From the NCBI GenBank assembly GCA_937895935.1, contig CALBKX010000015.1, positions 31,079 to 95,078 on the forward strand: a DNA stretch of 64,000 nt, written 5' to 3'. Origin of the DNA: an uncultured Clostridia bacterium. Its GTDB lineage: Bacteria; Bacillota; Clostridia; Christensenellales; UBA1242. Below, in pieces: positions 1 to 27,973 of this stretch. The notes beneath the pieces are model-generated. The model was given only the letters and a program-made list of their open reading frames with translations. It did not search any database and was not told where the DNA came from. The position numbers and the translations under genes are program-made. Every line of letters begins with the position of its first letter. Position 1 is the stretch's first letter.

Positions 1-34
1 TATTTATTAAATTTGTTATTTGATAAATATACAC
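1..34 (-). CDS. GIY-YIG homing endonuclease, first 11 codons only (gene runs off the left edge)
   Basis: RBS AAAGGAGGTG (rc of 41-50), 6-nt spacer, GTG at 34. Translation VYIYQITNLIN resembles the opening GIY strand of the free-standing GIY-YIG ORF at 11357-12175 (KGIYKITNKKNGKSYIG). Lies inside the presumed dnaE intron. Confidence 0.4.
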   Translation of the reverse strand, partial: MYIYQITNLIN

Positions 35-248
35 GTTTTTCACCTCCTTTCTTTGAATATTATTTGTACCCTTATTTCAAGAACTTAAAGAAATAAATAA
101 CTTTAATACTTTTTAGTTCGGTGATTGCCATGCCTTTAAGGTTTAGGTTTCCCCGAAGCACTATTAGTATTTTTTACTTATGAGACTTATTCTCTCTGCT
201 AATAGCACTTTATTTTTTATAATTAAGCGTTAGTGGGCAATGTTATTT
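1..248 (-). mobile_element. Group I intron (5' portion, continues beyond window) interrupting the Pol III alpha gene
   Basis: The Pol III alpha ORF stops at ...TSEKLG|K* inside the conserved GLLKxDxLGL motif. The last exon base is U (ggt). About 210 nt of non-coding sequence with hairpins follows, then an endonuclease gene start. Confidence 0.5.
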
Positions 249-2102
249 ACCCAATTTTTCACTAGTGTGGAGGTCATATTGAGTTGTCAAATCGCCATTT
301 GGACTACGCATAAGAGCATTTGTCTCAAATGGAGTTTTATTATATAATACTACTCCACTTGCGTGTTGTCCTCTTTTGTTCTTTAATCCTTCTATAGCTT
401 CCAATATTTCTAAAAGACCCGGATATTTTTCTATTTCATTTATAAAACTTTTTATAGGTTTAGTCCCTTTTTCTTCATTCCCATATAACACGTCTTTTAA
501 TGGCGGTAAAAAGCCACGTTCTTTTGGAATTAAACTGCTTAAATATTGTGCTGTTTCTATCGGCAATCCATCAGGATATTCTTTAGAACGATACCCACGA
601 CATCCACTATTAATTGCACTTTTTAATGTTTCAGTTCCGAAAGTGCATACTTGAATTAGATTTAGTTCTCCTCTTTCTCCTCTAATTTTTTCAAAAATCA
701 TCTTTCTTTTTGATGGAGACAAATCTATATCAATATCGGGCAATTCAATTCTTTCCTTATTTAAAAATCTCCAATATTTCAAATTCCATTTTATTGGGTC
801 TAATTGAGTTATTCCCATTAAATAATTTGACAGAAAACAAACAGAGCTACCTCTACCACTTAATAAAACAGAACCGCAGTCCCAAAATAAATCAATATAA
901 TGTTTAAAAGTATTAAAATATTTAAACAAAACATTGTTTAATTTTTCTCCAATTACTCGAATAACATCTGCTTCTGTTTCTAATCGAGTAAGATACTTTT
1001 TGTTCCATTTGCCTATTCTTTTTAAAGAAGATAAACATTCATTTATCCAATATCTTTCTTGTATCTCATCCGATTTTAATAAATAAGAAAGAGTGGGGTA
1101 GTCTTTAAGCTCTTCTTTTTTAAGATAATCCTTTACTGTTACTTCTGGAATAATAGGCTTTTTAAAAAGATTGTATCCTTCAATTTTTTTATAAATCTCC
1201 ATTGAATTTTTACAAATTTGTTCAAACTCTTCTAAGCTGTAGAAATCAGAGATATTATTATATATTTCCTTATTGTCCATAAAATGTGCGTCCCAATAAA
1301 ATTGGTCAACTTCCCGCTCGCCTTCTTTAGAATTCAAATAGGCTTTATGAAGAGGTCTCTCTTTAGAAGTAAGATAGTGAGCATCAGAACCAATTATTAT
1401 TTTTAAATTATACTTTTTAACAATACTTTTTATCCTTTTATTGAAGGCTCTTTGCTCTTCTGAATTTCCTGCGGCGATTTCAAAGTAAAAGTCTTCTCCA
1501 AATAATTTTATATTCCATTTTAAAAAATCATCAATATCTTTTTTAATTCTATTTATTTCTTTTAACAGACCTTTTTCTTCAGCTTTTATTAAGCTCAACA
1601 CTCTATTACCTATATAACCGCCGATACACCCATTAGATGCAATTAGACTATTCGGATATTTTTTAACTATTTGTTCTAAATCTGACATCTCTGTAGGAAC
1701 TCTATACATACCTCTTGAAGAAAAACCATTATACCAAGCAATAGAACTTAACTCTCTTAATGCTCTATGTCCTTGATTATTCTTTGCTATTAATATATAG
1801 TGAAAATACTTTTCTATATTTTTTTTATCTTTTACTAAATAAATTTCATTCCCTAAAGCACATTTAAAGTTTTCTGGAATTACCTTTTCTTTTTTTAATC
1901 TTTTTTCCTCTTCTAATAACTCGATATGCCCACTTAAACATTCGTGGTCTGTAAGTGTTATACCTATTAACCCAAGATTATTCGCAGTTTTTATCATATC
2001 TGGAATTTTATTAATACTATCAAGCAGACGTAGGTTTGAATATTCACTATGAGCATGAGTATCAAATCTAAGAAGTTCTTTTATCCCAACCATTTTTATC
2101 AC
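249..2102 (-). CDS. dnaE: DNA polymerase III alpha subunit, exon 1 (PHP domain plus N-terminal polymerase core)
   Basis: PHP motifs HAHSEYSNLRLLDS and LTDHECLSGH. Long collinear similarity to Pol III alpha. ORF truncated within the GLLK motif by an intron. Confidence 0.8.
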
Positions 2103-2121
2103 CTCTTTATTCTCTATATTA

Positions 2122-2150
2122 ATTATACTCCTAATTATTCACTTTTTCAA
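2122..2150 (-). promoter_or_regulatory. Sigma-A type promoter for dnaE (TTGAAA-17-TATAAT)
   Basis: The rc reads ttgaaaaagtgaataattaggagtataat followed by taatatagag, the recurring downstream ATAGA block. Confidence 0.55.
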
Positions 2151-2978
2151 TTCTTCATAATAGCTAACAAAATCTCCTTTTCCAAAACCCGGAATTGTAG
2201 TATTTCTTGCCGCCAAACTATTAAAGTCCATTTTTAATATTATTTCTTCTGCTTTTTGATTCAAAAATTTTATAAAAAAGAATTGCTGACCATTTCTCAT
2301 TCTCTCTATAACTTCACTCTTAGCTTTAAGGTAAAATAGTTGATTATAATCATGCCAACCCTGTCTAAACACTGCTAAATCCCAATCTTCATAAACATTA
2401 TTAAAAGATTGTGAAGTAGCATTATACTGCCAAATTAAAAAGTCTTTATGACTAGTTTTTGGCGGCGAGGTTAATCTTTTATTTATTGAACATAGTCTTT
2501 CTTTTGCCCAAATCTGAAAGACTGTTCTTATTTTATATTCTTTACTGCTTTCTAAAAAAGAATTTTCGGGCAAGTAGAAATAATCGACTAAGTTGTAGGT
2601 GGCATTTAATTGCTTTTGAATATTCCATTTCATAAAAGAAACAGGAAAAATCATAGCAATATAATCAGCGAAAGTTGCCGATTTATTAAAAAATAATACA
2701 GCATCATTTGAACGTTTCCCAAAAGGAGGATTCCCAATTACAATATATTCTTTATTTAAATCCGGCTGATAGTCTAAAAAATTTAACTTTTTAATAGTTT
2801 GGTTTTCTGGATATAAATCATAAGCTTCACAATTTTGTAATTGAGATGAAAAACTTCCATTTCCAGCTGAGGGTTCTAAGAGAATATAGTCATTAAAATT
2901 TGGAATATGTTCTTTTGTAAAATTAATACACCTTTTTGCTATATCGAGTTTTGTATAATACTTATCGTTTTTTGTTAT
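2139..2978 (-). CDS. N6-adenine DNA methyltransferase (NPPF type), paralog of 4271-5101; no canonical start codon
   Basis: The frame is open upstream of the tracked ORF (2139-2654). It translates to ...KYYTKLDIAKRCINF...LLEPSAGNGSF...VIGNPPFGKRS..., collinear with ORF 4271-5101. No in-frame ATG/GTG/TTG lies before 2654. The proposed start is ATA at 2978, 9 nt after GGAGGTG. Confidence 0.65.
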   Translation of the reverse strand: MTKNDKYYTKLDIAKRCINFTKEHIPNFNDYILLEPSAGNGSFSSQLQNCEAYDLYPENQTIKKLNFLDYQPDLNKEYIVIGNPPFGKRSNDAVLFFNKSATFADYIAMIFPVSFMKWNIQKQLNATYNLVDYFYLPENSFLESSKEYKIRTVFQIWAKERLCSINKRLTSPPKTSHKDFLIWQYNATSQSFNNVYEDWDLAVFRQGWHDYNQLFYLKAKSEVIERMRNGQQFFFIKFLNQKAEEIILKMDFNSLAARNTTIPGFGKGDFVSYYEELKK

Positions 2979-3957
2979 AGTTATACACCTCCCAGAATGC
3001 TAAAGAAGCAATTTGATAAGCCTCTTGAAAGCTTATTCTCTTTCTGTTTCTATCTCTAAAATTGGTTAATATAATATTGTTATAATCTTTTCTAGCTTTT
3101 TGAATAATAGAGTTTGCTTTTTTAATAATTTCTTTTTGGAGATTGTCTTCTAAGTCGTAATTACAGGAAAGAGTAGCTATATTTCTATCAGAATCTTTCC
3201 CATAATAAGGGCTTTCAGAATAATAAAAATGTAATGGTTCATTCTTTTTATCAATACAGACTATGTTTATTTTTGTTGGCTTTTTGATATTATTCTCTGT
3301 AATTCTTGAAAAGATATTTTTTACTTTTGTTAATTTATCAAAGAACTCGCCGCCAAACCTATAATTATATCCTTTTTTTAATATCATTTCATTTTCTTTC
3401 GTTTCATTTTTGCTATTGTAAATTATAAAAGGTATTCTTTGAGTATCATTACTTGAATGCTTCTTAAAAGCAAAAGAACAAACATTGTATGCAGTTTTTT
3501 CAAATACTTGCTCTTCAAAATAATTTATTCTTTCTATTTTAAATCTTGTTAAAAAGATATTCCTAATTTTATTAGAACGACTATCAGAGAAAAAATTAAT
3601 TGGGATAACTAATATTCCTCCTTCCGCCTGAAGCATAGTAGAAAGAGCAACTTTATATAAATCATCATAATCATTGTCTAAAAAATACTTTTTTTCTTTT
3701 GTTTTGTTTTTTGCTAAATACGGTGGATTTGTAATTATCCACTTTCCTTGATAGTCTGGCGGCGATAGTAGAGTATCTCTTTTATGTTCGCCTCCGAGAT
3801 TAATATCATAATACTCAGATACATTAAAGTTTTTGACTAAATCTCCATCTCCATAAAAAGGTTCAACTATTTTTGCAGTTGCCGGAATAAAATCAGTCAA
3901 ATTATCAATCAATAAAGGATTCTTTGAATAATGTTCGGTTTTTTTTAAATCATTCAA
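2962..3957 (-). CDS. N6-adenine DNA methyltransferase (NPPY type)
   Basis: SAM motif I VEPFYGDGDL and motif IV ITNPPY. Confidence 0.7.
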   Translation of the reverse strand: MNDLKKTEHYSKNPLLIDNLTDFIPATAKIVEPFYGDGDLVKNFNVSEYYDINLGGEHKRDTLLSPPDYQGKWIITNPPYLAKNKTKEKKYFLDNDYDDLYKVALSTMLQAEGGILVIPINFFSDSRSNKIRNIFLTRFKIERINYFEEQVFEKTAYNVCSFAFKKHSSNDTQRIPFIIYNSKNETKENEMILKKGYNYRFGGEFFDKLTKVKNIFSRITENNIKKPTKINIVCIDKKNEPLHFYYSESPYYGKDSDRNIATLSCNYDLEDNLQKEIIKKANSIIQKARKDYNNIILTNFRDRNRKRISFQEAYQIASLAFWEVYNYNKKR

Positions 3958-3973
3958 AATTCATTCCTCCATT

Positions 3974-4010
3974 AAAAAAAGGCTATCAGCGATTAAGCCA
4001 ATAGCCTTTT
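3974..4010 (-). terminator. Rho-independent terminator after ORF 4024-4215
   Basis: Hairpin aaaggctat/atagccttt with a 14-nt loop, followed on the minus strand by a U7 run. Confidence 0.7.
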
Positions 4011-4023
4011 CTCGCCAGTAAAA

Positions 4024-4215
4024 TTAATAAACTTTTACTAACTTAACAATTACCCAACTTTCATCTTTCTTACACTTCTTAGTAGATGAATAAGATGTTA
4101 ATTCATATCCACCTTCTAACTGCTTAGCCTTGGCATTCTCAATTAATGCTTTAGCTTCTTCTTCGGTATTAACCATGAACTCTTCTGTTCTTTTTAGTAA
4201 TAATCCTTCATTCAT
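4024..4215 (-). CDS. Hypothetical small protein (63 aa)
   Basis: ORF with RBS AGGAGG and its own promoter and terminator. No recognisable motif. Confidence 0.5.
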   Translation of the reverse strand: MNEGLLLKRTEEFMVNTEEEAKALIENAKAKQLEGGYELTSYSSTKKCKKDESWVIVKLVKVY

Positions 4216-4264
4216 ATGATAGCCTCCTATTTTATTGGTGTCTTTCTCACCTTTCTATAATAAT

Positions 4265-4293
4265 ATTATATCACATTATTCCTTTAAAATCAA
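4265..4293 (-). promoter_or_regulatory. Sigma-A type promoter (TTGATT-17-TGaTATAAT)
   Basis: The rc reads ttgatt...aatgtgatataatattattatagaaagg. Confidence 0.6.
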
Positions 4294-5101
4294 CACTAAT
4301 CTTTTCTTCTATTTTTTCTATTAGTTCGCCTTTTGACAAAGATTTTGGCCCACAAGTCCAACCTAATTCTTCATATTGTATTTTGTTAATTTCTTCTACT
4401 AACTCTTTTGTATCAATAGTTGTATTATTCTTTATAAAATAATTGCTGCTATCAGCATAATTCAAATCTAGACTAGCTTTTCCAGCATTGCCTCCAACTC
4501 TTTGTATTCTAAAATCAGCTTTATCTTTAGTGGTAAAATTAAAATATTTTGTTTTTGTTTTTATTTTATATTTCTTTCTTTTGGTATTTTTCTTTTGCCA
4601 AATTTGAAATACACATGGTAAAGAGTATTCTTGTTCGTAAAAAGTATAAGAATTTTTGTCTAAGATTTTTTCTCCTATACAAATGAAATATGGCGGCATC
4701 CTATTTATATAACTTTTTTTCTTAAAGGATAAAGGTAAAATGAAAGCAATTGTTTCAGCAAAAGTAGAGCATTCATTTATAAATAGGAAAGCTTCTTTTG
4801 CTTGTTGTCCAAATGGCGGATTACCAATTATTAAAACTCTTTTATCTTTTGTAAAGCTTTTGTCTAGTAGTAAAAAATCTTGTTTAATTATTTTATCATT
4901 TTCTGGAGATATATCATAAGCAAGACAATTCTTAAATAAATTTGAAAAACTTCCGTTTCCGGCAGATGGTTCAATTATCAAATCATAGCTTTTTAAATCA
5001 ATATGTTTTTGTAAAAAATCAACACATTCCTTTGCTACTTCTTTTTTTGTATAAAATTTATCTAGTAAATCCTTTTGCTTATTACTTTTTGTTATTCCCA
5101 T
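4271..5101 (-). CDS. N6-adenine DNA methyltransferase (NPPF type)
   Basis: IIEPSAGNGSF (motif I) and IIGNPPFG (motif IV). Confidence 0.75.
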   Translation of the reverse strand: MGITKSNKQKDLLDKFYTKKEVAKECVDFLQKHIDLKSYDLIIEPSAGNGSFSNLFKNCLAYDISPENDKIIKQDFLLLDKSFTKDKRVLIIGNPPFGQQAKEAFLFINECSTFAETIAFILPLSFKKKSYINRMPPYFICIGEKILDKNSYTFYEQEYSLPCVFQIWQKKNTKRKKYKIKTKTKYFNFTTKDKADFRIQRVGGNAGKASLDLNYADSSNYFIKNNTTIDTKELVEEINKIQYEELGWTCGPKSLSKGELIEKIEEKISVDFKGIM

Positions 5102-5625
5102 GTATATTCACCAACTTGATTTATGTAGTCATGAAAATCTTTATTATTAATAGCACATTGAATTCGTTTTTGCTTCTTGTGGTCTCTTTTGAAACGTGGT
5201 CTAATAAAATTAAGAGTCTTTTGCTGCCATTCTTTTTTAAAAAGAGCAATTTGACTTTTCCATTTAATATCGTCAGAATAATCATTTGTCATTTCTTTTA
5301 AAAAACTTTCAAATTCTTTTAGAAGCTCATAATTGAAAAAAGAGAGATAAGTCTCTTTTGTAAAATAAACGATTCTTTGTTCAACAATATTATTTTTATC
5401 TTCACTCCAAAAGCCAACTATTAAAATAAAATCACTATTCACTTGAGAATTTCTAAAAATATCTGCCATTTCAATATCTGAATTATACTTCTCTAATTTT
5501 ATTTGAACTGGAATGCCATCTTTCGTGTAAGCATCATAAATGCCAGTATATTTTATTTCTTTTGTTAAATTATATTCGTTAATGATATAATCCTCAAAAA
5601 TAAAGCCATGTTTCTGTCTTTCCAT
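5092..5625 (-). CDS. Hypothetical protein, possible PD-(D/E)xK-like nuclease
   Basis: HGFIFE...YDAY...PVQIKLEK spacing is reminiscent of a D...(E/Q)xK nuclease core. Overlaps the downstream methyltransferase by 10 nt. Weak assignment. Confidence 0.3.
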   Translation of the reverse strand: MERQKHGFIFEDYIINEYNLTKEIKYTGIYDAYTKDGIPVQIKLEKYNSDIEMADIFRNSQVNSDFILIVGFWSEDKNNIVEQRIVYFTKETYLSFFNYELLKEFESFLKEMTNDYSDDIKWKSQIALFKKEWQQKTLNFIRPRFKRDHKKQKRIQCAINNKDFHDYINQVGEYTWE

Positions 5626-5657: not shown

Positions 5658-5686
5658 ATTATACCACATTTTATTCCAAAAGTCAA
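5658..5686 (-). promoter_or_regulatory. Sigma-A type promoter (TTGACT-17-TGgTATAAT)
   Basis: The rc reads ttgact...aaatgtggtataatactgatagaatt. Confidence 0.55.
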
Positions 5687-7008
5687 AAACTTAAATAATT
5701 ATCTTCTTTTATTTCAATATCAGAAATCATAATTTGCGGCGATACATTACCCATATATTCATTTCTATTAGGTGTTCCAATAACAGTTAAATTAATTTTA
5801 TTATCTAGTCCATTAATCTCATCAATAATTTTTTCTGCCTTAAACATCACATACTTAACATTATTAAAAGTAAAATTAATAACATTTTTTGCCGCACCAA
5901 CAATTCTAATATCCTTTTTATTTAAAGTAATATCTTTTACTAAAATTTTTGGCTCTGGATTAAACTGCCCAAAACTTTCTCCATCATTTTTTGTTAAATC
6001 AAAAATTAAATCATTAAGTTTAGAATAGTTGCCCGCAACAATAAAATCAACTTCATAAACACCTTCGTTAAAATTAATTTCTGAAAGTTTTGTGTTAGCA
6101 TATTGCAATAATTTTGGGATATTTTTTTCTTTAATGGAAAAGCCAAATGCTTGTGAATGTCCCTCTGCGTAATCCATTAAATTGCTGTCCAACAAAAATT
6201 GTTTAGTATCTGTAAGTTCACAATTTGATACTCCTCTTACTGACCCTCTAAACAATCCCTCTGAATTCGTTCTACCTAATAAAACTGGCTTTTTATAACG
6301 TGATACAATTTCAGTAGCACATAGTCCAGTTAGTGTTGTGGAAACGTTTAAATCATCGGCATGTAAAACCAAAATTTGATTTTCATCTAAACAATTTTCA
6401 ATAATTTGAATATCTAAAAGTTCTCCAGCTTTTTCTTTTTCTTTATTTTGTCTAGCACGAGCATTCGCACAATTTCTAGCATTTTGTTCAGCAATTGTTT
6501 CTGTCTCATTGCTATGTCCTCTTTTTGTTGACGGAATTTCTTCAAGACTATAAACTTCAGTAAAAGCTTTAAATAATAAATCTTTTTCATTTTGATTTCC
6601 CACTCGAATTAAAGCATTTACTAATGGAGCAATATAATATGCCACTTGAGTTTGTGTAAGACGGCAATTATCTAAAAATTCTTCTGTAATATCCTCTGAT
6701 TTCATCCGAAATAATGAATATGCTTGCTGTTTAATTAATGCTCTAAGCCCCTCATTAAAAATATTAGACAGCCCAACTTTGTTGATATATCTATTTTCAA
6801 GAGTGTTAGTATCCATACAATCAGCAACATGAGCAACTGCAACTAAATCTAAAAAAGCATCAGCAAATTTAGTTTCTTTATTACTTTCAAAATATTTCAA
6901 AAACTTATAAACTACACCAGCACCACTTAACGCTTTATTGGAATAGTTTTTTGATAATTGATTATTGATTACTATAGCATTTTGACAATAGTCAGAACTA
7001 AGGTGATG
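5683..7008 (-). CDS. RecJ-like DHH-family exonuclease, exon 2
   Basis: The frame is open upstream of the tracked ORF. It reads HHLSSDYCQNAIVINNQLSKNYSNKALSGAGVVYKF..., with the HH of the DHH motif III and a GAGV motif. The first canonical start is only at 6900. Confidence 0.7.
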   Translation of the reverse strand, partial: HHLSSDYCQNAIVINNQLSKNYSNKALSGAGVVYKFLKYFESNKETKFADAFLDLVAVAHVADCMDTNTLENRYINKVGLSNIFNEGLRALIKQQAYSLFRMKSEDITEEFLDNCRLTQTQVAYYIAPLVNALIRVGNQNEKDLLFKAFTEVYSLEEIPSTKRGHSNETETIAEQNARNCANARARQNKEKEKAGELLDIQIIENCLDENQILVLHADDLNVSTTLTGLCATEIVSRYKKPVLLGRTNSEGLFRGSVRGVSNCELTDTKQFLLDSNLMDYAEGHSQAFGFSIKEKNIPKLLQYANTKLSEINFNEGVYEVDFIVAGNYSKLNDLIFDLTKNDGESFGQFNPEPKILVKDITLNKKDIRIVGAAKNVINFTFNNVKYVMFKAEKIIDEINGLDNKINLTVIGTPNRNEYMGNVSPQIMISDIEIKEDNYLSF

Positions 7009-7323
7009 TATTTATACTCTTGCTTTCGCTATAAAGCACTATTTAATAGTATCTTTATACATATAATTTAAAATTACATTGTTCCTCCATTAAATTATAT
7101 GAAGAGATTGGACTATCTCTTCAGTGTATTCACTGTTCCCCATATAGTCTCTGAACGTCTTTCTCAAAAAAAGAAATTTCGCTGCGGATTGTCCAATCTT
7201 TAACCTTTTTACTATCTCTTTGCCTTTCAGCATTGCCATATCAATATTACTATTAATACTTAGTAGTTAAAGCTCTAAGGAGTTTCCCGCAATTAGAGGA
7301 ATTTTATTTGAACCATCAAATTA
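7009..7323 (-). mobile_element. ORF-less group I-like intron splitting the DHH motif (LD|HH); 3' boundary uncertain
   Basis: Exon 1 ends ...DILILD followed by a stop, and exon 2 resumes HH.... The interior shares a ~45-nt block with phoH intron 12601-12853 and the gactat/atagtc pairing elements. No G precedes the HH codons. Confidence 0.55.
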
Positions 7324-7800
7324 ATCCAAAATTAAAATATCATATCCTAAATCTTTGAGAATCTTACATTCTTCTGTGTCATTGCTACCAGCGTCAGGGA
7401 TTATGATTAAATCACAAACCCTATCTTTTAAAAATAAATCCATTTTTGTTTCTAAACCATGTTCTTTACCCTCTGGAATTGAATACTTTAAAGTATATTT
7501 ATATCCCTCATTTACTTTTAGCATTGATAAATAATTATAAATTATTGTGCTACTGGCTACGCCATCCAAATCTGAATCCATGATGATTAACATTGTGCTA
7601 TTGTTCTTAATATGCTTCTCTAATAGCTCTTTTCCCTCTTCCATATTATCCAATAACTCAGGCGGCAATAATTCTTTTACTGTGGGATTAAAATATCTAT
7701 TCTTGTAATCTTCGTTATCTTCTAAAATTCCTCTGTCAATTAACAAATTTTCTAAAAAATTCTCATTAATTTCTTTCTTTGTTCTTCTTAAAAACTTCAA
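7324..7800 (-). CDS. RecJ-like DHH-family exonuclease, exon 1
   Basis: DHH motifs I (MDSDLDG) and II (IIPDAGS), ending with the D of motif III. Confidence 0.7.
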
Positions 7801-11356: not shown

Positions 11357-12175
11357 TTATTTTATTTTTAAATAAGGACATTTACGTTTTAGTTCTAGCA
11401 AAATTCTTTCATAGTATCTTTTTCTTTTATTGTAATTATAATCGTCTTTATTGGATTTAGGATAGAATTTTAAGCACTTTTTCGCATCAACTGGATAATT
11501 CATAATATTGTTTATTAATGTAAAGATGTATAATTTGCCATAAACCGTCTTCATATCTAAAATAACTTTTTCGTTTTTAAAGAATGCTGACAAACCTAAA
11601 TACTTAATAGGAAAAGCAATTTTACATTTTTTATCCTCTGTGATTTCTATTAATCCCTCTTTATATAACTCTTTAATTGATTGATTCGCTTTTGCGGTAG
11701 TTCCTTTGTGTGCCTTACTTGAAAATAAGAAAATTAATTTATCAATAGAGATTGGTTCTTTTTTATATAATAAATAAATTAAAATTGTATCATAGAAGAG
11801 TGGATTCCTATTCAATCTTAATATTCTTTGATAATAATCCTTCTCTTCTTTGTTATCTTCAATAACAGAGTTTTCTTTTTTATCAACTTGTTCTTTAGAA
11901 AAAGTTAAATTTGTATTTAATCTTAAATTATAGCCTTTCGGTTCGAGTGTATCATATTTATGGATATAAAAATCTTCCCAATAAGACAATTGGCTAATAA
12001 TATCTACTTCTTTTAAAATTTCAAAAGTAAAATTTTCAATTCCTTCTTTTTCTATAATCTTGTCAATATATTGGTCGCCCTTGCAATGCTCATCTAATCT
12101 TTTGCCACAATGAATTGATTGACCGATATAACTTTTCCCATTTTTCTTATTTGTAATTTTATAGATTCCTTTCAT
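11357..12175 (-). CDS. Free-standing GIY-YIG homing endonuclease
   Basis: KGIYKITNKKNGKSYIGQS...RLDEH GIY-YIG module. Intergenic position between the phoH-like and HTH genes. Confidence 0.7.
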   Translation of the reverse strand: MKGIYKITNKKNGKSYIGQSIHCGKRLDEHCKGDQYIDKIIEKEGIENFTFEILKEVDIISQLSYWEDFYIHKYDTLEPKGYNLRLNTNLTFSKEQVDKKENSVIEDNKEEKDYYQRILRLNRNPLFYDTILIYLLYKKEPISIDKLIFLFSSKAHKGTTAKANQSIKELYKEGLIEITEDKKCKIAFPIKYLGLSAFFKNEKVILDMKTVYGKLYIFTLINNIMNYPVDAKKCLKFYPKSNKDDYNYNKRKRYYERILLELKRKCPYLKIK

Positions 12176-12195: not shown

Positions 12196-12600
12196 TTAAA
12201 TTTCATCCAAATATTCTGCCGCCTGAGCAACTAAACTACGTTCAATTCTTCTTAGCTTTACCGCAGCAAAAATTTTAGAATAAATTGGAGATTCTCTTAA
12301 TTTCAGCAATAACTTTAAACCACTCTTATCTTTAAAAATTAAGCTGTCTGTTTGTTTTAAATCACCATCAAAAAAGATTCTGCTATTTTCGCCGCAACGA
12401 GAAATCAAAAGCTTAATATGGTATTCAGTTAAGTTTTGTGCTTCATTGATAATAACAATAGCATTTGAAAAACTGCGTCCTCTGATAGAAGCAATAGGAA
12501 CGACTTCTAATTCTTCTAGTTCAATCATATTTTGAACTCTGTCGATTCCGATTAAGTCAATTAACGGGCCAATTTGACCACTGATTTTTGGGAGTAAATC
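12196..12600 (-). CDS. phoH: PIN-PhoH ATPase, exon 3
   Basis: Begins DLLPKISGQIGPLIDL, continuing the GxLPG|DL.eK PhoH motif. Contains INEAQN (Walker B region). Length 405 nt, in frame. Confidence 0.8.
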   Translation of the reverse strand, partial: DLLPKISGQIGPLIDLIGIDRVQNMIELEELEVVPIASIRGRSFSNAIVIINEAQNLTEYHIKLLISRCGENSRIFFDGDLKQTDSLIFKDKSGLKLLLKLRESPIYSKIFAAVKLRRIERSLVAQAAEYLDEI

Positions 12601-12853: not shown

Positions 12854-12976
12854 ACCCGGCAGTGTCCCTACTTCCAAAGAGTCTTTTGTATAAGCGTTAT
12901 TTGGAACATAAATAATTTTTGAAATTTTTCCTCTTTCTAATTCTTGTAAAGCAAAATTTGTTAAGATGTAGCTTTT
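12854..12976 (-). CDS. phoH: PIN-PhoH ATPase, exon 2 (41 codons)
   Basis: KSYILTNFALQELERGKISKIIYVPNNAYTKDSLEVGTLPG completes Walker A (GSG|KS). 123 nt, in frame. Confidence 0.8.
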
Positions 12977-13216
12977 CCTTTATACCGTCCTTTTCAGGAT
13001 ACTTTAACACTTTTGTCGGAGTAGACTATATCTTCTTCATTGAAATGAAGTGTGGTTTTTCGGATTTAAAAAATCTACTTCCATAAGGAATAGTCGTTGA
13101 ACTTCCCGTTGGCTAAACGGTTTAGCTGCTGATTACCATATTAACATTAATTTAGGCGTTCCAGCAATTAACCACATTATTCAATATATATTACTATATA
13201 AGGGAGCTAATTAATA
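12977..13216 (-). mobile_element. ORF-less group I intron (240 nt) splitting the Walker A motif of the phoH-like gene
   Basis: Exon 1 ends GCAGSG (ggt, U). The intron ends in G (12977). The next exon starts KS. Confidence 0.8.
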
Positions 13217-18800: not shown

Positions 18801-19403
18801 TTAATATTCCATATACTTACTAAAATCAATATTTTCAAAAATAAATTCTTTTCTAGGCAGAACATCTTCTCCCATTAAGTCCTCTAATAATTTATCTACT
18901 TCTGGTTCGTATTCTAATATATCTAATTTTTGATTTTCTTCTGTAAACATTGCTTCTTCCATTTCGTCTGCACTCATAGAACCTAAGCCTTTCGCAGAAA
19001 TAATTGTGCCACCACGATATTTTTCTTGTTTTTCTCTTTCTGAATAATAATAATATCGTTTATTGCCTTTTGTTTCAATAAACAAAGGTGCTCTAAGCCA
19101 GCAAAGTCGATTTTCTTTTAAGAATTGTGGGCAAAGTTTATAAATTGCCGCCATTAATAATAATGAGATGTGGCTGCCATCTAAATCCCCATCAACGCAA
19201 ATTCCAATTTTACCATATCTTAATTTTTTAGGGTTATAATTATTTATATCAATTCCCATAGCATAAAGTAAAAGTTTAATTTCTTCGTTTGCTAAATACT
19301 TTTCTTCTGTATTGGAAAGACAATTAATAATCTTCCCTTTTAATGATAGTAAGCCAAATTTATCTACTTTTCTGGCTTTTGCTACCATGGATGCTGCGGA
19401 GTT
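18801..19403 (-). CDS. Type II topoisomerase subunit B (GyrB-like), exon 3 (Toprim C-terminal part)
   Basis: Begins NSAASMVAKARKVDKFGLLSLKGKIIN, collinear with [27 protein letters not shown]. Contains DGDLDGSHI (DxD). Confidence 0.75.
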   Translation of the reverse strand, partial: NSAASMVAKARKVDKFGLLSLKGKIINCLSNTEEKYLANEEIKLLLYAMGIDINNYNPKKLRYGKIGICVDGDLDGSHISLLLMAAIYKLCPQFLKENRLCWLRAPLFIETKGNKRYYYYSEREKQEKYRGGTIISAKGLGSMSADEMEEAMFTEENQKLDILEYEPEVDKLLEDLMGEDVLPRKEFIFENIDFSKYMEY

Positions 19404-19595
19404 CGCATAAAATGCTGACTATTTCTTTAGTAATTCACTACTTACCGTTTCAGGCTATGTGTCAATAATAGCCTTACTCCTCGACAAAGAGGATAGTCGA
19501 TACAGGATTTTATTCCCACGAGATTTTACCCTCGTTAGCTATTTAATAAAATAACCTCATTGACAAATGACAAAATAAGTAAGGGCGACCCAACC
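19404..19595 (-). mobile_element. ORF-less mini group I intron (192 nt) inside the Toprim EGxSA motif
   Basis: Exon 2 ends CVEG (ggt, U). The intron ends in G (19404). The splice gives VEG|NSAAS. Contains gactat (19430 region) and atagtc (19491 region). Exon lengths 340+938+603 = 1881 nt, in frame. Confidence 0.7.
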
Positions 19596-20533
19596 ACCCT
19601 CAACACACAGGAGAATAGAATTTTCTCCTAATTCTTCAGAATCTTTCAATTTTTCAATAAAAGCTAACTTACTTTTTCTTAATTCTTTCATTTCTTGACT
19701 GTGGTTCAAAACCGCTTCTCTTGCTTTATCAGCTGCCCGTTCAGCTTTATCCACTTGTAGCAGCAAAGTAATTACTTGATTAAAATCTTTTTGTCTTTTA
19801 ACAGAAAATTCTTTTAAGCATTCTGAAATAGCCGCTGATGTAGCTGTTCCTGCTTCTGGATTAGCTAAAGAAGTTTTCTGTTGATTACTCCATTGACCTA
19901 CTCGAACTTTTACAGATACAAAACCACTTAAAACATTTCTGATTAAATCGCCGTTAAATTTAGTATGAGCCAAAGCATTAAAAGTTCTTGTTAAAGAAGA
20001 TTTAAAGGCACTAATAAATCGTCCACCATCTTTTACATACAAAGAATTGGCATAACCTTTAATTTCTCCTCTTTTTTGAACCCATTGTAAAGCCAATTCA
20101 ACTTTACAATCAGCTGTTTCGTAATGATAAGAAAAAGGTTTAGATAAAGCATTCTTATTATTAATTCCGTCAATTAGCCCATTTTCAGAATAAAATTCGG
20201 TTATTTCTCCATCGACTACTAACTTAAATTTTAGCCCTTTAGAAAAATAACTCATATTTTTTAACATTTCTTTTAGTGATTCAACATCAATAAAAATGTT
20301 TCCATATACTTTTGTATCTGGGACATAAGTAATTTTTGTTCCAGTTTCTTTTGTTTTTCCAATAATTTTTACATCATCATCTGCTACAGCTCCTTCATCA
20401 TTAGAATGAAACTTTTGATAATAGATATTATTATCTCTTTTGACTTCTACTTCAAGCCATTCTGCTGTATGACAAACAATTTTGTTTCCTTCCAGTGCCC
20501 TTCGCAATAGTTCATTACTACTGTTGCCGCAAA
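19596..20533 (-). CDS. Type II topoisomerase subunit B (GyrB-like), exon 2 (transducer domain)
   Basis: Collinear with the GyrB transducer. Ends with the Toprim E of LCVEG. Confidence 0.7.
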
Positions 20534-21339
20534 CGCTGCTATATATTGCTATATAGATTAGACTATATCTTTAAGATAATTCTTACTTCGCATTATTTAA
20601 TGCTACTCTACTAAAACATTCTTGAAAAGATATGTTTAATAGCTGTTCCATATTAACATATTCTTTTTCAAGTAAAATTTTTTCGATAGTCGTTGAACGC
20701 TCATCAATTAGATAACCATTTTCTTTCATTTTCTTAATTCTAAATAAAATTGCTTCCCTCAGAATTTGGTTTAAATCGTAATTATATTTTTTTAATGAAA
20801 AAGTTTTTGTTCTTTCTTTTGCTCGCCAGCCGAATCCCTCTATCCATATTGGCTTACCTTCTGTCCAACTTACTCTTATTCTTTGGTATTTTCCATTGTC
20901 TTCATATCTTATCCCATTAAAATTAAATTTATTTGCGACAGTTGTGCTTTGATTCTTTTTATTTAAGCTAGATGATACTAATCTTAAATTACTTTTTTGA
21001 TTATTAAGCCCATTTTTATCTATATGGTCAACTAAAATCTTATTATCTGTAAGACCAAGTATCCATCTATGCATCCGACCATAAGTATCATGAATAGCAT
21101 ACACAGTTTTTCTGTCATGAGAACAATCACTTCTTTTATATCCAGTTAAATACCAACCTTTTTTGGGAATTCTTTCATAATCTTCATCGTCCAGCAGAAC
21201 TTCTGCTCCGCAAGTTAAAATAAATTTTTTCATACAACACCTCTTTAATGAGGTTATCTAATTGTGAACGCTGCTGATTGTCCCATAGGGAGTTTCCAGC
21301 AATTCAAGAATTTTTACAATGGCTCAGGTTAACCATTAC
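20534..21339 (-). mobile_element. Group I intron with HNH-AP2 homing endonuclease gene in the gyrB-like gene (boundaries approximate)
   Basis: Exon 1 is open only to ...SSAIGCNG*. The proposed splice (gga t|tt tgc) gives AIGFCGNSSNELL, aligned to GLHGVGASVVNALS. The 3' 34 nt are near-identical to nrdD intron 1. The intron ends in G (20534). Confidence 0.6.
20583..21233 (-). CDS. HNH homing endonuclease with AP2-like DNA-binding domain (intron-encoded)
   Basis: VDHIDKNGLNNQKSNLRLVSSSLN (HNH_3) and an IRYEDNGKYQRIRVSW (AP2-like) strand. Confidence 0.7.
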   Translation of the reverse strand: MKKFILTCGAEVLLDDEDYERIPKKGWYLTGYKRSDCSHDRKTVYAIHDTYGRMHRWILGLTDNKILVDHIDKNGLNNQKSNLRLVSSSLNKKNQSTTVANKFNFNGIRYEDNGKYQRIRVSWTEGKPIWIEGFGWRAKERTKTFSLKKYNYDLNQILREAILFRIKKMKENGYLIDERSTTIEKILLEKEYVNMEQLLNISFQECFSRVALNNAK

Positions 21340-21679
21340 ATCCAATAGCAGATGAATAAGCTCCTTCTTCGTGCTTACCGCCACTATGCGGAATAAGAAA
21401 GGCAGCAGTTAAAGAATTAATTCCATCTTCTCTTTTACCTACTGGAATCCCTCTAAATTCATCCTTAACAGTAATTGTTCTATTTTTTGTATCTAAAGTA
21501 ATTTCACAAACAGAATTGGGTTTTGGATAAACTTCGTATTCATCTTGAACATTTACGATTAATTCTCGAAGTCCAAGATTGATTGCTTCTTGCTTTTCAC
21601 CAGTCAAATACATTCCCAATTTTTGTCGAAATGCTTTCCCAGCACTAAGTGTTTTTATATCATTAGCACCATAACTCAC
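21340..21679 (-). CDS. Type II topoisomerase subunit B (GyrB-like), exon 1 (GHKL ATPase N-terminus)
   Basis: RQKLGMYLTG, LRELIVNVQDE (N-box) and DEFRGIPV (G1 region). GTG start with RBS GGGAGG. Confidence 0.75.
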
Positions 21680-24378: not shown

Positions 24379-24404
24379 AGGTTTGAATACTGATATTATT
24401 CTTG

Positions 24405-25934
24405 TTAATTTAAATGTTTTACTCTATTATAAACATCCGCCGCACGTCCTTCTTTTACATTATTTAGAGTTGTTAAATAACCGCAAATACGCCAAGAAGT
24501 TCTTACTCTATCTGTCTCGCCACATTTAGGACATTGCCATTTAATTTCTCCGCCATTCATAATCTTTTTAAAGTCATAGCCCATAAATAAACAATCCGGA
24601 TTTTCACATTGAGAAACTTCACTATTAACTTCAGCATATAAACAATTATTACCAATATGTTCAATTATTTCTAACATAGCATCAAGATTATTTGATAAAT
24701 TAGGAACTTCTATATATGAAATACTGCCCCCTTGTGTTTTATCACTAAATTGTGCTTCTGCTGTTAATTTACTAAAAGCATCAATTTTTTGAAAAACTGG
24801 TATATGATAACCATTTGTTAAATATTTTCTTTGAGTTCCATCACCTACTTGTTCAAAATCTCTTAAACAGGCTTTAGCGAATTTATCAGTCAAGGATTCG
24901 GCGGGTGTAGCATATAAAGCAATACTTACATTGACTTTATCCCCAAAACTTTTATTCTTATCATTAAGGTAATCTAAAATTTTATGTGCTAATATTCTAC
25001 CTTTGCCTTCCCAATGATTTCCTCCTGTAATGTATTTTACACATTCATAAAGTCCCATATACCCAAGAGTGCAAGTATAAAATCCACCATAAACTAATTT
25101 TTCAAGATTATCTTCTGGATTTAAACGTGCCATACCACCATAAACCCAAAGTAAAGGACAAGCTTTTGCTTTTATTTTTGCTACATGATTGATTCTCCAA
25201 ACCATATCTTGATAAGCAATATCTAAATAATGGTCAAGATTTTTAAATAAAATCTCTTCAGAACGCTCTTTGTTGTTTTCCATTGCTATATACGGTAAAT
25301 TTAAAGATTGAACTCCGCAATTCCCTCTGCCATATACTTGTAATTTTCCAGTTTCTGGATTAACCCATGGAGAAAGGAGTGCTCTACATCCCATGCTTGG
25401 AGTAGCAATCCCTTTCAATTCCATGTGTTTTTTAACACTCATATAATCTGGAACAAGTCTTTTTGCTGAACATTCAGCACACATTTTTGTTATTTCGTAG
25501 TATTTTCCACCTTTCATAGTATCTTCATCAAGAAAATAAAGAATTTTTGGGAAATTAGGATTTACTTTTAAACCACTTTTATCTTTTACGCCAGAAATTC
25601 TTTGCTTTAACATTTCTTTAAAAATTAGAATTAAATCATCTGTATATTCAGGCTCTTCATTCAAATAAACAGAAACAGTTAAAAAAACAGCTTGCCCAAC
25701 AGAACTACAAAGAGTTGAATTTTGATAATCAAAACACTGCATTCCTTGCTCGATTTCTTTAGATAATCTTTTATTTACAATTTTTGCTTTAGTCTTTTTA
25801 AAATCAAAATTGTGCATCTCATTATTAGAAAAATTATCTAACACAAAATAGATTTCATCTTCAACTTCAGCTTCAATTTTTTTTCGGCTAGCATTAACAA
25901 ATTTGGCAAGATGCAATAAATTAATAGTGCAACC
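24405..25934 (-). CDS. nrdD: Anaerobic ribonucleoside-triphosphate reductase, exon 3 (glycyl radical domain)
   Basis: Begins GCTINLL, continuing ...SYG|G. C-terminal zinc cysteines CENPDC...CPKCG and glycyl radical motif RICGYL. Confidence 0.85.
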   Translation of the reverse strand, partial: GCTINLLHLAKFVNASRKKIEAEVEDEIYFVLDNFSNNEMHNFDFKKTKAKIVNKRLSKEIEQGMQCFDYQNSTLCSSVGQAVFLTVSVYLNEEPEYTDDLILIFKEMLKQRISGVKDKSGLKVNPNFPKILYFLDEDTMKGGKYYEITKMCAECSAKRLVPDYMSVKKHMELKGIATPSMGCRALLSPWVNPETGKLQVYGRGNCGVQSLNLPYIAMENNKERSEEILFKNLDHYLDIAYQDMVWRINHVAKIKAKACPLLWVYGGMARLNPEDNLEKLVYGGFYTCTLGYMGLYECVKYITGGNHWEGKGRILAHKILDYLNDKNKSFGDKVNVSIALYATPAESLTDKFAKACLRDFEQVGDGTQRKYLTNGYHIPVFQKIDAFSKLTAEAQFSDKTQGGSISYIEVPNLSNNLDAMLEIIEHIGNNCLYAEVNSEVSQCENPDCLFMGYDFKKIMNGGEIKWQCPKCGETDRVRTSWRICGYLTTLNNVKEGRAADVYNRVKHLN

Positions 25935-27075
25935 CAATAATATAAAGGTTTTTTAATTACCCTTATATTTTAGACTATTTCTTGTAATCTTTTTGGTTGA
26001 TTACCGATGTGTTTCAAACATTGCCACCAATGTCCTACAATTAGTCGTTACAATTATTTATTAATTTTATATTATATTTTTCGGGAGTTTCTAAATATCT
26101 ACGAACTTGAGTTTCAGATTTTCCCATAAATTTTGATAAAGCTGCGACACTTTTAAATTCATATTTGTCTTTGTAAATAATTTTGTCAAAAATAAATCTT
26201 CGTTTTATAACTGGTTTTCTATTTAATTCTCTATAGGAATGAAGATTGTTTTCAGATTGTGAAACCCATTCTAAATTAATAGATTTATTGTTAGTAATAT
26301 CACCGTCTTTATGATTAATAGTGTTATGTTTTTCATCATGACCTTCGCAAAAGGCAAATCCCACTAATCTTGCAACTTGGTATATTTTAGATTCATTATT
26401 TTTACTTAATACTGCTTGTAGTCTACCACTTATAGGGTTTACACAATATCTTAAAAGAATTTCTTCATTCAAATATTTTGTTTTTATTCTGCCATAATTT
26501 GACACTTGATAATTCTCATATCCTAAAATTTCTTTCCAAATTTCTCCGTCAATTAAATTGTCTTTTAATAAAATTTTATTATTACTTTGCTTTGTTTCAG
26601 AATTCCTTTTTTGCCATTCTTTGTAAGCTTTTTGAAGCACCTTGTCATATTTAAACAATCTGACAAGACTATCATTACTTATTTTTATTTCTTTGGCAAT
26701 ATTTGTAATAGTATTGTTTCTACCAAGTTGAGAAATTATGTATTGTTTATATTCATTTAATATTTTTTCATTTTTCGGCGTTAAATGCATTTTAGATTGA
26801 TTTTGAGGAAAATTCCATTCTTTAATTTTTTTTCCAACTATTCTTCTATCTATTTCAAGTAGTCGAGCTATATAAGTTTTGGTTCTCCCCTCGTTTGTAT
26901 ATAATTGATAGATAGTATTTCTTAAAAGTTCGCATTTTTCTTTATTTGTCATCTTGTATTCCACCTTAAATTAATAAATAATCACGAGATTAGCTTTTCC
27001 ATCCTACCTCGTTAGCTGCGATACGCAACCCCGTTTTGACGGTTAACATCGTTTTGATACGGCAGTTTATTTTAA
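25935..27075 (-). mobile_element. Group I intron (1141 nt) with HNH/NUMOD homing endonuclease gene in nrdD
   Basis: Exon 2 ends tac ggt (U). The intron ends in G (25935). Contains tagactat (25969 region) and tagtcg (26041 region) pairing partners. Confidence 0.75.
26041..26964 (-). CDS. HNH homing endonuclease with NUMOD4-like and HTH modules (intron-encoded)
   Basis: YQVSNYGRIKT (NUMOD4) and INHKDGDITNNKSINLEWVSQSENN (HNH_3). Confidence 0.7.
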   Translation of the reverse strand: MEYKMTNKEKCELLRNTIYQLYTNEGRTKTYIARLLEIDRRIVGKKIKEWNFPQNQSKMHLTPKNEKILNEYKQYIISQLGRNNTITNIAKEIKISNDSLVRLFKYDKVLQKAYKEWQKRNSETKQSNNKILLKDNLIDGEIWKEILGYENYQVSNYGRIKTKYLNEEILLRYCVNPISGRLQAVLSKNNESKIYQVARLVGFAFCEGHDEKHNTINHKDGDITNNKSINLEWVSQSENNLHSYRELNRKPVIKRRFIFDKIIYKDKYEFKSVAALSKFMGKSETQVRRYLETPEKYNIKLINNCND

Positions 27076-27237
27076 ACCGTATGAATTTCCGGTAATATGA
27101 CTTAAGATTTGAGTTGTAATAGTGCAAGCAGTTAAAAAACTTTTTGGCTTTTCAATCCATCTGCCACCTAATTCAAAACCATTTTGTAATAACTCATCAA
27201 GATTTAATAATCTACAATTTTCCCATTTATATTCACA
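27076..27237 (-). CDS. nrdD: Anaerobic ribonucleoside-triphosphate reductase, exon 2 (54 codons)
   Basis: CEYKWENCRLLNLDELLQNGFELGGRWIEKPKSFLTACTITTQILSHITGNSYG matches the NCxLxDL...GF...PKS...A core of NrdD. Not in the ORF track because it lacks a start codon. Confidence 0.8.
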
Positions 27238-27496
27238 CAGTCATTTCTGTGCCGTTCTCTTATGAACTGCTATATATTACTATATAGATTAGACTATATC
27301 ATCAACTTAAAACAAGTTGTCCACTTTTTCGTTTTATTTAAAAAACTACTCATTTCTGATAGTCGTTAGGCTTTTAAAATTTAGCACGGCAAGTTATCTT
27401 CTTTAATTGAAATTGTATTAAAGACTTTCTCCGTTTAAATAGATTTTTCTAATATTCTCACGAACATTAGGCACAGCTTTTATTTATGCTTCTAAA
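27238..27496 (-). mobile_element. ORF-less group I intron (about 259 nt) in nrdD; the 5' boundary could be 3 nt either way
   Basis: Exon 1 is open to ...FHDMSYSFRSINKSCA*. The intron ends in G (27238). The splice HDMSYS|CEYKWENC restores E. coli-like spacing between HD and NC. Shares a 34-nt 3' block with gyrB intron 1. Confidence 0.75.
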
Positions 27497-27973
27497 AGAA
27501 TAGGACATATCATGAAAATATACTACTCCTCTATCATGAGCTTCTAAAGCATCTTTAGGTAAAGCTTCACGCATAGCTTCTTTACTGGGGATTTCTGCCA
27601 AATACGAATTTTTGATATGAGTTAATTCAGTATCTTTGTTAGCATTTTCTTCTTTTACTTCTTTTGTAGAATAAAGAACTTTTTCAATTTCTGTAGGATT
27701 TTTATTAATTCGCTCTTTATTAATTTTATAATCAGAATACTGTCTTGCTATATCAGGAGCTTTATCATAGAGAACACTCATAACGATATTTTCTATTTCG
27801 CTATTAGATACGGCATCCTTTCCTTTCATTACTACTTTAGTTGTAATTTCATTAGTTAAAGAATCAATAAAATCAAAATCCGGCAACTTAATTTGATTAG
27901 CCGCTTGAATGATTGCTCTTCTAATTTTATTACTGTCATATGGTATTTCTTTATTATTTTTAATTACTACCAT
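27497..27973 (-). CDS. nrdD: Anaerobic ribonucleoside-triphosphate reductase, exon 1 (ATP-cone)
   Basis: ATP-cone VIKNNKEIPYDSNKIRRAI. Ends at the HD of the conserved HDxxxY region. Confidence 0.8.

Follow-up and report, generated by a model that had tools for sequence, protein, structure and literature searches.

Eight putative group I introns in five replication and nucleotide-metabolism genes of a low-GC phage known from metagenome assemblies

The stretch of DNA analyzed here (the window) comprises 64,000 nucleotides of contig CALBKX010000015.1 (assembly GCA_937895935.1, positions 31,079 to 95,078), which is deposited as DNA of an uncultured Clostridia bacterium. Within 28 kb of the window, the genes for the DNA polymerase III alpha subunit (Pol III alpha), a RecJ-like protein, PhoH, a GyrB-like protein and NrdD, all of which function in replication or nucleotide metabolism, are interrupted by eight inserts. 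These inserts are, with high confidence on the grounds of sequence comparison, group I self-splicing introns of a low-GC phage of ~100-160 kb that is known only from metagenome assemblies. The original prediction of eight such introns, which was made from the window alone, is borne out by intron-less alleles, by models of the intron core, by covariation and by the P1 pairing at the 5' splice site. The inserts lie at defined positions with exact junctions, share a conserved core with covarying helices, are polymorphic among relatives and in part encode endonuclease domains.

The window contains ~29% GC. A megablast search of GenBank phages with 10 kb of the window detects no relative. The nearest named phage by protein is phAss-1, with 36% identity for GyrB, and phAss-1 and Enterococcus phage EF1 are the nearest named relatives of the lineage. 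IMG/VR contains many related contigs of 80-180 kb each, and nearly identical genomes are present in ENA assemblies. One of them, L060 (related loci are designated by L numbers), comes from a 156.8-kb contig and matches 18.9 kb of the window with 99.0% identity. More than 10 assemblies, which are independent and stem from different samples, show the same architecture.

Intron-less alleles and exact junctions

The junctions of the inserts are fixed by alignment to alleles that lack them (Table 1). The phoH gene of L025 is intron-less, with 97.6% amino acid identity, and so is the nrdD gene of L014, with 82% amino acid identity. The recJ genes of L043, L044, L045, L047 and L048, which are ~95% identical, are uninterrupted through the DHH site. 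L044 is intron-less at the Pol III site and 98.9% identical there, which fixes the 5' splice site after position 249. Intron-less gyrB genes of 1848 nt are found in ~25 contigs at ~60% identity. According to these alignments, the boundaries originally proposed for the recJ intron, both phoH introns (I1 and I2), gyrB I2 and nrdD I2 and for the 5' end of the Pol III intron are exact. The motif divided by the last of these is not GLLK, as first read, but KLG^DVKYDFL (^ marks a splice junction).

Two other boundary pairs had been misplaced, although they were in frame. gyrB I1 had been assigned to 20534-21339, but the resultant product contains 11 surplus residues as compared to E. coli GyrB and 11 phage relatives. 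L025 and L026 contain an ORF-less (ORF, open reading frame) 215-nt copy of gyrB I1 with the same ends, and the earlier assignment is refuted because in L025 a stop codon lies in the stretch that had been taken as exon. The corrected junction, SSAIGCNG^EGNKIV, aligns without gaps with 11 intron-less relatives, and the spliced gene is as long as theirs. By this correction gyrB I1 gains a P1 helix of at least 7 bp (UAAUGGU/GCCAUUG). Likewise, nrdD I1 had been assigned to 27238-27496, and its corrected junction is MSYSFRSM^ENCRLL. Both corrected introns still start after U and end in G. The exon lengths are changed to 348+897+603 for gyrB and 488+148+1530 for nrdD, and their sums remain in frame. 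Thus, in-frame exon sums are not sufficient as a test, because two wrong boundary pairs were in frame as well.

Seven of the eight introns obey the proposed rule U^...G^, by which an intron follows U and has G as its last nucleotide. The exception is the recJ intron, which ends in A. Among the 50 inserts of relatives for which protein alignment alone allowed a junction to be called, the large majority admit U^...G^ in one of the equally best placements, and clear exceptions are few. Chance is excluded.

The spliced products are identified by Pfam as Pol III alpha with PHP and NTPase domains, a DHH/RecJ_OB protein, a PIN-PhoH protein, a GyrB-like protein and NrdD with an ATP-cone, and their matches in Pfam and the PDB are full-length and gap-free. 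As had been anticipated, gene callers on related contigs report the pieces as separate genes. Automated pipelines break these five essential genes of the lineage into at least 13 fragments; in the corrected gene models, Pol III alpha, RecJ, PhoH, GyrB and NrdD are full-length again.

Conserved group I core

Splicing of the window introns is predicted to proceed as follows. Each gene would be transcribed through its introns, and the intron RNA would fold to a group I core that consists of the P3-P8 and P4-P6 domains and has a P7 that binds G. P1 would form between the end of the 5' exon and an internal guide located 9-13 nt into the intron, and its U.G wobble would lie at the splice site. The 5' splice site would be attacked by exogenous GTP, and the freed 5' exon would then attack the 3' splice site past the terminal intron nucleotide, by which the five reading frames would be restored.

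A covariance model (CM R1) was built from five cores of one of two structural classes (class A; two cores from the window and three from relatives) and was used, with its filters switched off, to scan the entire 64 kb. The known inserts occupy ranks 1-6, 8 and 9. The scores are 171 bits for phoH I1 and 94.8 bits for phoH I2, which is a training member. The recJ intron (54.5 bits, E 1e-10) and nrdD I1 (48.4 bits, E 3e-9) lie outside the training set, and the recJ intron is also detected by nhmmer with an E-value of 5e-27. gyrB I1 is matched in both halves by nhmmer and CM R1 (38.1 and 18.9 bits). The matches to gyrB I2 (17.8 bits, E 0.03) and nrdD I2 (17.5 bits, E 0.04) are marginal; they fall exactly on the P7-P8 cores, in nrdD I2 on the P8-P7' region. 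A match at 3832-3906 on the minus strand (18.6 bits, E 0.02) is taken as chance; it lies within an uninterrupted methyltransferase ORF. The CM R1 matches beyond the inserts are noise, and therefore no ninth intron is found. Over 1.1 Mb of related loci, CM R1 detects further introns of both classes in phoH, recJ, nrdD, gyrB and Pol III, including the class B introns recJ-442 and nrdD-420. Nhmmer profiles of class A and class B detect only their own members in the window.

Every insert contains an R element (GUUCAACGACUA or variants) and an S element (AAGAUAUAGUC or variants), which form P7, and the canonical P and Q elements (AAUUGCGGGAAA / AAUCCGCAGC) are present in the recJ intron, phoH I1, phoH I2 and gyrB I1. 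P7 is formed by pairing of (A/U)CGACUA or AGAGACUA with UAGUC(U/A/C) in all seven introns that are complete in the window and, for the Pol III intron, in L060. Because this helix is almost invariant, its covariation is confined to the flanking pair (U-A versus A-U). P1 is present in all eight introns: the 5' exon ends in U, which forms a U.G wobble with a G 9-13 nt into the intron, and the helix is 4-9 bp long. It is 7 bp in the recJ intron (UUUGGAU/GUUCAAA), phoH I2 (GCCGGGU/GCUCGGC) and nrdD I2 (AUACGGU/GCCGUAU, shuffle p=0.004). In related introns, guide and exon show covariation (GCUC/GGGU versus GCGC/GCGU, by eye). P10 is clear, partly by eye, in four introns, namely the recJ intron (UGAUG/CAUCA, 5 bp), phoH I2 (GAAUU/GAUUU), nrdD I2 (AACU/GGUU) and the Pol III intron (AACAUU/GAUGUU), the P1 of which is UGGGU/GCCCA (both helices by eye).

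For class A introns and their relatives (26 distinct sequences, in an alignment fitted to the model), 89.9% of the cells are paired, versus 40-45% when the pairing is slid, and 31 of the 36 pairs change on both sides. Compensatory changes support P3-P8 and P4-P6 domains that follow each other in canonical order. In the unconstrained minimum free energy (MFE) folds of the window introns, P3 encloses internal hairpins (P4-P6, P7.1/P7.2), with z of -0.9 to -3.9. The fold of phoH I1 recovers P2, P3, P4-P5, P6 and P8 of an intron that contains P2, P3, P4-P6, P7, P7.1, P7.2, P8 and P9; that of nrdD I1 recovers P2, P3, P4-P5, P6, P8 and P9.1; that of gyrB I2 consists of P3 enclosing five hairpins; and that of nrdD I2 RNA from which the ORF is deleted recovers P3, P8 and P9 (z = -3.9). 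According to the Rfam and CM alignments and the MFE folds, P7.1/P7.2 are present in phoH I1, phoH I2, gyrB I1 and nrdD I1, and these four introns are classified on the models as IA2-like. The recJ intron, which lacks P7.1/P7.2 in the CM R1 alignment, is modeled as having a related core.

Several results weigh against the assignment of the inserts to group I self-splicing introns. When the window is scanned with the Rfam model Intron_gpI (RF00028), as the original prediction had suggested, only one of the eight introns reaches the gathering score (phoH I1, 69.6 bits versus 50). phoH I2 is detected below it (31.4 bits, E 1.7e-4), and the other six are unmatched; even at E<=10, only noise is obtained for gyrB I1, gyrB I2, nrdD I1 and nrdD I2. 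phoH I1 and nrdD I1 have a P1 of no more than 4 bp (GCAU/GUGC in the latter), and several introns have a weak P10 or none. The helices of nrdD I2 and of the Pol III intron are assigned by hand analysis, MFE folds and few compensatory changes, without a significant model match. Finally, the recJ intron retains in P7 the usual G-C pair of the G-binding site, and a terminal A combined with a normal G-binding pair should on textbook grounds impair exon ligation. Of these results, the Rfam negatives carry little weight, because the same model misses L044:4209-4448, which is 97.5% identical to phoH I1, even at E<=10 in 9.5 kb, and, at the gathering threshold, detects nothing in 132 kb from six related loci that are rich in introns. 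As a control, the T4 nrdD intron gives 105 bits. The Rfam model or its filters are erratic on these AT-rich introns.

Compact class B introns

gyrB I2, nrdD I2 and the Pol III intron appear from their sequences to form a compact, related class (class B). The comparison includes gyrB I2 and the recJ-442 and gyrB-443 introns of relatives, and its support consists of pair counts rather than of a covariance model of its own. When five introns are aligned by plain MAFFT, 93.6% of the cells are paired, versus 31-42% when slid, and 22 of the 47 pairs change on both sides. The elements are arranged in the order P1, followed directly by P3, a short covarying hairpin, P4(-P5), P6 (the site of ORF insertion), P7, P7.1, P7.2, P3', P8, P7' and P9. 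Thus, class B keeps P7.1/P7.2, lacks P2 and has an extra hairpin ahead of P4. The strand that lies upstream of this extra hairpin is paired, in several members, with the L7.2 loop. In gyrB I2, P5 is reduced to a loop, and P6, P7, P7.1, P7.2, P8 and P9 are present. By hand analysis, nrdD I2 and the Pol III intron, as completed from L060, fit this plan.

The Pol III intron is cut by the start of the window. Its 5' part contains the guide GCCCA, the 5' strand of P3 (AACGCU), a hairpin and P4-P5 (UUCGGGGAAACC...AAUCACCGAA). A GIY-YIG ORF, which starts with GTG at ~34 and runs out of the window, is represented there by its first 11 codons. The same intron is 1233 nt long in L047 and contains the full GIY-YIG ORF. 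In L060 (L060:18612-19085), it is ~470 nt long, ends with UUUUACG^GAUGUU and contains a 39-codon remnant, in which the N-terminal 12 codons are joined to the last ~25 codons of the full L047 gene. The GIY-YIG ORF of the window is therefore probably a deletion remnant as well, to judge from its near-identical counterpart. P3 shows a compensatory change between the two relatives (AACGCU/AGCGUU in L060 versus AACGUC/GGCGUU in L047).

The related contig L058 (IMGVR_UViG_3300012983_000039) is more intron-laden than the window. It contains at least four inserts in Pol III alpha (near residues 430, ~640, 713 and 838) and two in recJ.

Terminal A of the recJ intron

A G as the last intron nucleotide (omega G) is a near-universal rule of group I introns. 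It is present in six of the seven complete introns of the window and in the Pol III intron of L060 and L047, and is absent in the recJ intron, the 3' end of which is ...GAGUAUAAAUA^CAUCAC. This boundary cannot slide. It is in agreement with the intron-less alleles, and there is no in-frame 3' splice site after an upstream G, because the CAT CAC codons are preceded, 6-8 nt upstream, by a TAA stop codon. Nine assemblies (L046, L060-L065, L069 and L070) with three diverged exon backgrounds share the terminal A, and L069 contains a 1087-nt version with an intact LAGLIDADG ORF, which is also A-terminated. A G-terminated recJ intron was sought in IMG/VR and JGI metagenomes and none was found; every copy ends in A. 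A literature search for natural non-G terminal nucleotides in group I introns gave nothing productive.

Either splicing of the recJ intron proceeds in spite of the A, or the phage can dispense with recJ and the intron spreads regardless. It is rather unlikely, but deserves consideration, that some of the inserts are decayed and do not splice, which would make a pseudogene of the host gene. For such decay, the recJ intron is the foremost candidate, because a terminal G-to-A change would block the second splicing step. A change of this kind looks likely, because related introns end with ...GGUAUAAAGG^ or ...GGGUAUAAAUG^ and the recJ intron ends with ...GUAUAAAUA^. As read from the sequence, the G-C pair of the G-binding site is unchanged, and the gene offers no alternative in-frame site after a G; both facts favor decay. 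On the other hand, a terminal A that is shared by independent assemblies across the three exon backgrounds and by the version with the intact LAGLIDADG gene speaks against an inactive intron. Both recJ exons are intact in all copies, and the ratio of nonsynonymous to synonymous substitution rates (dN/dS) is 0.06 at a dS of 0.44 between two alleles, both of which carry the intron, indicating that the gene is under purifying selection. P1 and P10 of this intron suit the A^CAUCA junction. It is tentatively proposed, with less than even confidence in the proposal as a whole, that the recJ intron is a natural group I intron that is mobile and undergoes productive splicing with a terminal A and, secondarily, that class B is an undescribed IA structural variant. 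If the A-terminated recJ intron splices, it would be a naturally occurring departure from a rule that is among the most conserved in group I catalysis. Docking of its 3' splice site would then be non-canonical, for instance by depending strongly on P10/P9.0 or on a cofactor protein, such as its LAGLIDADG maturase.

Probable mobility of the introns and alternative explanations

At least 18 distinct insertion sites are found over the five genes in related contigs, and alleles that lack the introns are 82-99% identical. One and the same intron is found either with or without an ORF, and relatives have GIY-YIG and LAGLIDADG versions. For example, phoH I1 carries an ORF insertion of ~820 nt in L036 and L043 and a LAGLIDADG gene in L062, L063 and L065. 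phoH I2, which is missing from L025, is a 1066-nt version with an ORF in L037 and L047, and gyrB I2 of L039 contains an ORF of ~770 nt in L6. Even genomes that are 99% identical to the window differ in their introns: some have an extra recJ-442 intron and some have the LAGLIDADG gene in phoH I1. The exon identity to the window shifts from 47-67% to 98-99% exactly at insertion sites (in gyrB for L025 and L026, and in gyrB and phoH for L036, L037 and L039); in gyrB, the identity to L025 is 98% upstream and 67% downstream of the intron site. Such jumps at intron sites point to breakpoints of recombination or to co-conversion at the sites of homing (compare PMC10448857).

The original prediction had assigned endonuclease genes to three of the introns. 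The two complete intron ORFs of the window are HNH endonucleases, that of nrdD I2 with a NUMOD4 domain, and the GIY-YIG ORF of the Pol III intron is the probable remnant described above. The ORF of gyrB I1 is matched by Pfam HNH_3 (E=1.1e-4) and by a PHROG HNH endonuclease family (3.6e-11); only HNH is matched, and an AP2 label given to it earlier is unconfirmed. With two intact HNH genes, one GIY-YIG remnant and ORF-less introns that have ORF-bearing twins in relatives, the introns probably are, or recently were, mobile by endonuclease-driven homing. Such homing would lead to patchy presence in nearly identical genomes and to recombination breakpoints at intron sites.

In some T4-like phages, a homing endonuclease gene is said to split a ribonucleotide reductase or DNA polymerase gene. 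The five genes might in the same way be truly split by endonuclease cassettes or other insertions, with fragments that are translated separately and then reassemble. The endonuclease ORFs that are, or formerly were, present in three inserts and the separate listing of fragments by gene callers would agree with this explanation. It is nevertheless very improbable, since five inserts are ORF-less and only 192-315 nt long, and some fragments are too small alone (41 codons for phoH exon 2 and 49 for nrdD exon 2). The junctions fall within a codon (AT^G at nrdD I1) and within catalytic motifs (D^HH, GSG^KS and EG^NSA), the downstream fragments mostly have no start codon at the junction, and the inserts contain conserved, covarying group I cores.

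It is still less probable that the inserts are other elements, such as group II introns, inteins, insertion sequences, miniature inverted-repeat transposable elements or assembly artefacts. Nothing specific speaks for this explanation; the inserts share their AT-richness with the remainder of the genome. Inteins are ruled out because the inserts contain stop codons in all three frames and are out of frame, and group II introns are unlikely because inserts of 192-315 nt without a reverse transcriptase are too small. Neither group II domains V/VI nor transposase-type ends are seen, and no terminal inverted repeats or target duplications were noticed on reading the junctions, for which no tool search was made. 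Assembly artefacts would not account for an architecture that recurs across independent assemblies. Group I introns are the best explanation of the inserts. The lineage represents a dense natural collection of small mobile ribozymes, which would be good material for the study of the gain and loss cycle of endonucleases, intron-mediated competition of co-infecting phages and minimal group I architectures.

Features of the window

The coordinates of the exons, introns and intron ORFs are summarized in Table 1.

Table 1. Exons, introns and intron-encoded ORFs of the five interrupted genes.
Feature	Position	Strand	Basis or remark
Pol III alpha exon 1, PHP + NTPase domains, ends ...SEKLG	249-2102	-	Pfam PHP, DNA_pol3_alpha; relatives continue G^DVKYDFLVTE
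Pol III intron, 5' part	1-248	-	extends past window start
recJ-like exon 1, ends ...ILILD (D, first DHH residue)	7324-7800	-	Pfam DHH + RecJ_OB on spliced product; intron-less alleles
recJ intron, 315 nt, ORF-less, group I, 3'-terminal A	7009-7323	-	boundaries from L043-L048
recJ-like exon 2, starts HHLSSD	5683-7008	-	spliced product, alignment
phoH exon 1, PIN domain + P-loop start, ends ...GCAGSG	13217-13918	-	Pfam PIN_4 + PhoH on spliced product; L025
phoH I1, 240 nt, ORF-less, IA2-like	12977-13216	-	Rfam RF00028, L025 alignment
phoH exon 2, 41 codons, KSYILT...GTLPG	12854-12976	-	alignment to L025
phoH I2, 253 nt, ORF-less, IA2-like, long P5	12601-12853	-	Rfam, CM R1, L025 alignment
phoH exon 3, starts DLLPKISG	12196-12600	-	alignment to L025
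gyrB-like exon 1 (type II topoisomerase ATPase subunit), ends ...SSAIGCNG	21332-21679	-	relatives; PDB GyrB/ParE E 2e-58
gyrB I1 (corrected), 839 nt, IA2-like	20493-21331	-	11 intron-less relatives
HNH endonuclease ORF in gyrB I1	20583-21233	-	in P6 region, extends into P7
gyrB-like exon 2	19596-20492	-	alignment to relatives
gyrB I2, 192 nt, ORF-less, compact class B	19404-19595	-	junction VEG^NSA
gyrB-like exon 3, Toprim + C-terminal domain	18801-19403	-	Pfam, alignment
nrdD exon 1, ATP-cone + catalytic domain start, ends ...MSYSFRS + AT of Met codon	27486-27973	-	alignment of relatives
nrdD I1 (corrected), 262 nt, ORF-less, IA2-like	27224-27485	-	L014 + four other relatives, PDB 9d3x
nrdD exon 2, ...ENCRLLNL...GNSYG	27076-27223	-	alignment
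nrdD I2, 1141 nt, class B-like	25935-27075	-	junction SYG^GCT from L014
NUMOD4-HNH endonuclease ORF in nrdD I2	26041-26964	-	in L6; stop codon within P7
nrdD exon 3	24405-25934	-	alignment

A free-standing GIY-YIG homing endonuclease gene is located at 11357-12175 on the minus strand, between phoH and the next gene. This slot is polymorphic, because the nearly identical genomes L062, L063 and L065 have a different ORF of 210 amino acid residues there. Three neighboring genes with NPPY/NPPF motifs at 2139-5101 on the minus strand are DNA methyltransferase-like, and an ORF of unassigned function at 5092-5625 adjoins them. The first of these genes has no ATG, GTG or TTG start codon in the ORF list, yet it is continuous over 2655-2961. 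The resultant gap of 308 nt in the list was considered as a further intron and rejected, because it is coding and belongs to this continuous methyltransferase ORF.

The genes are encoded on the minus strand in 1-33 kb and on the plus strand in 34-64 kb, and the 28-64 kb half consists of intact, tightly packed ORFs, among which no further intron was found. At 33012-33710 lies a repeat-rich, non-coding region of 18% GC, where transcription diverges and the cumulative GC skew is at its minimum; it is a candidate for a replication origin or a divergent promoter region. A single tRNA gene, tRNA-Lys(UUU), is located at 57436-57512 on the plus strand in the late-gene half, and a stretch of ~680 nt upstream of it (56286-56970) contains no ORF of at least 70 amino acid residues.

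Comparison with known group I introns and intron-rich phages

The compact gyrB I2 (192 nt) resembles the Azoarcus tRNA-Ile intron, which is ~205 nt long, in that it consists of P1, P3, P4, P6, P7, P8 and P9, and its relatives have a GNRA-type terminal hairpin. Class B differs from the Azoarcus intron by IA-type P7.1/P7.2, by the lack of P2, by the extra covarying hairpin between P3 and P4 and, in several members, by the L7.2 pairing; gyrB I2 differs from it also by the reduction of P5 to a loop.

The class A introns appear, from their sequences, to be typical phage IA2 introns. They share with these the R/S consensus GUUCAACGACUA / AAGAUAUAGUC and P7.1/P7.2 between P7 and P3', and in both cases HNH, GIY-YIG or LAGLIDADG genes are located in peripheral loops and extend into the core. 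phoH I1 shows local nucleotide similarity to unannotated stretches of Herelleviridae genomes of Staphylococcus and Bacillus (Twort-like and Bastille/SPO1-like). The host genes (phoH, recJ-like, gyrB-like and dnaE-like) and the insertion sites differ from those of the T4, Twort and SPO1 introns; the T4 nrdD intron, for example, lies ~60 residues downstream of the site of nrdD I2. With eight introns in 28 kb, the local density is far above that of T4, which has three group I introns in its whole genome. The IA2 introns of T4 (td, nrdB and nrdD (sunY)), Twort, SPO1 and Bastillevirinae are likewise located in replication or nucleotide genes at catalytic motifs (PMC11878797; Landthaler & Shub 1999, as cited there).

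The original prediction considered this density to be unusual for phages, a judgement that is out of date. [quoted passage not shown] Jug jumbo gut phages contain on average 18.5 group I introns of ~206 nt each per genome of 360-402 kb, and splicing of 37 of their 76 predicted introns is supported by metatranscriptome reads (PMC12880540). High intron loads are also found in Twort and Bastillevirinae (PMC11878797). As in the window, essential genes of the Zeta/Delta crAss-like and Jug phages, including nrdD and DNA polymerase genes, are fragmented by small group I introns and by free-standing or intronic homing endonucleases. The lineage of the window differs from these phages by its DnaE-type polymerase and type II topoisomerase subunits; its replication module is denser, with one intron per 3.5 kb, and no inteins are seen in the window. 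Thus, the lineage is undescribed with respect to its introns and their local density is high, yet it is not a new kind of thing beside the crAss-like and Jug phages.

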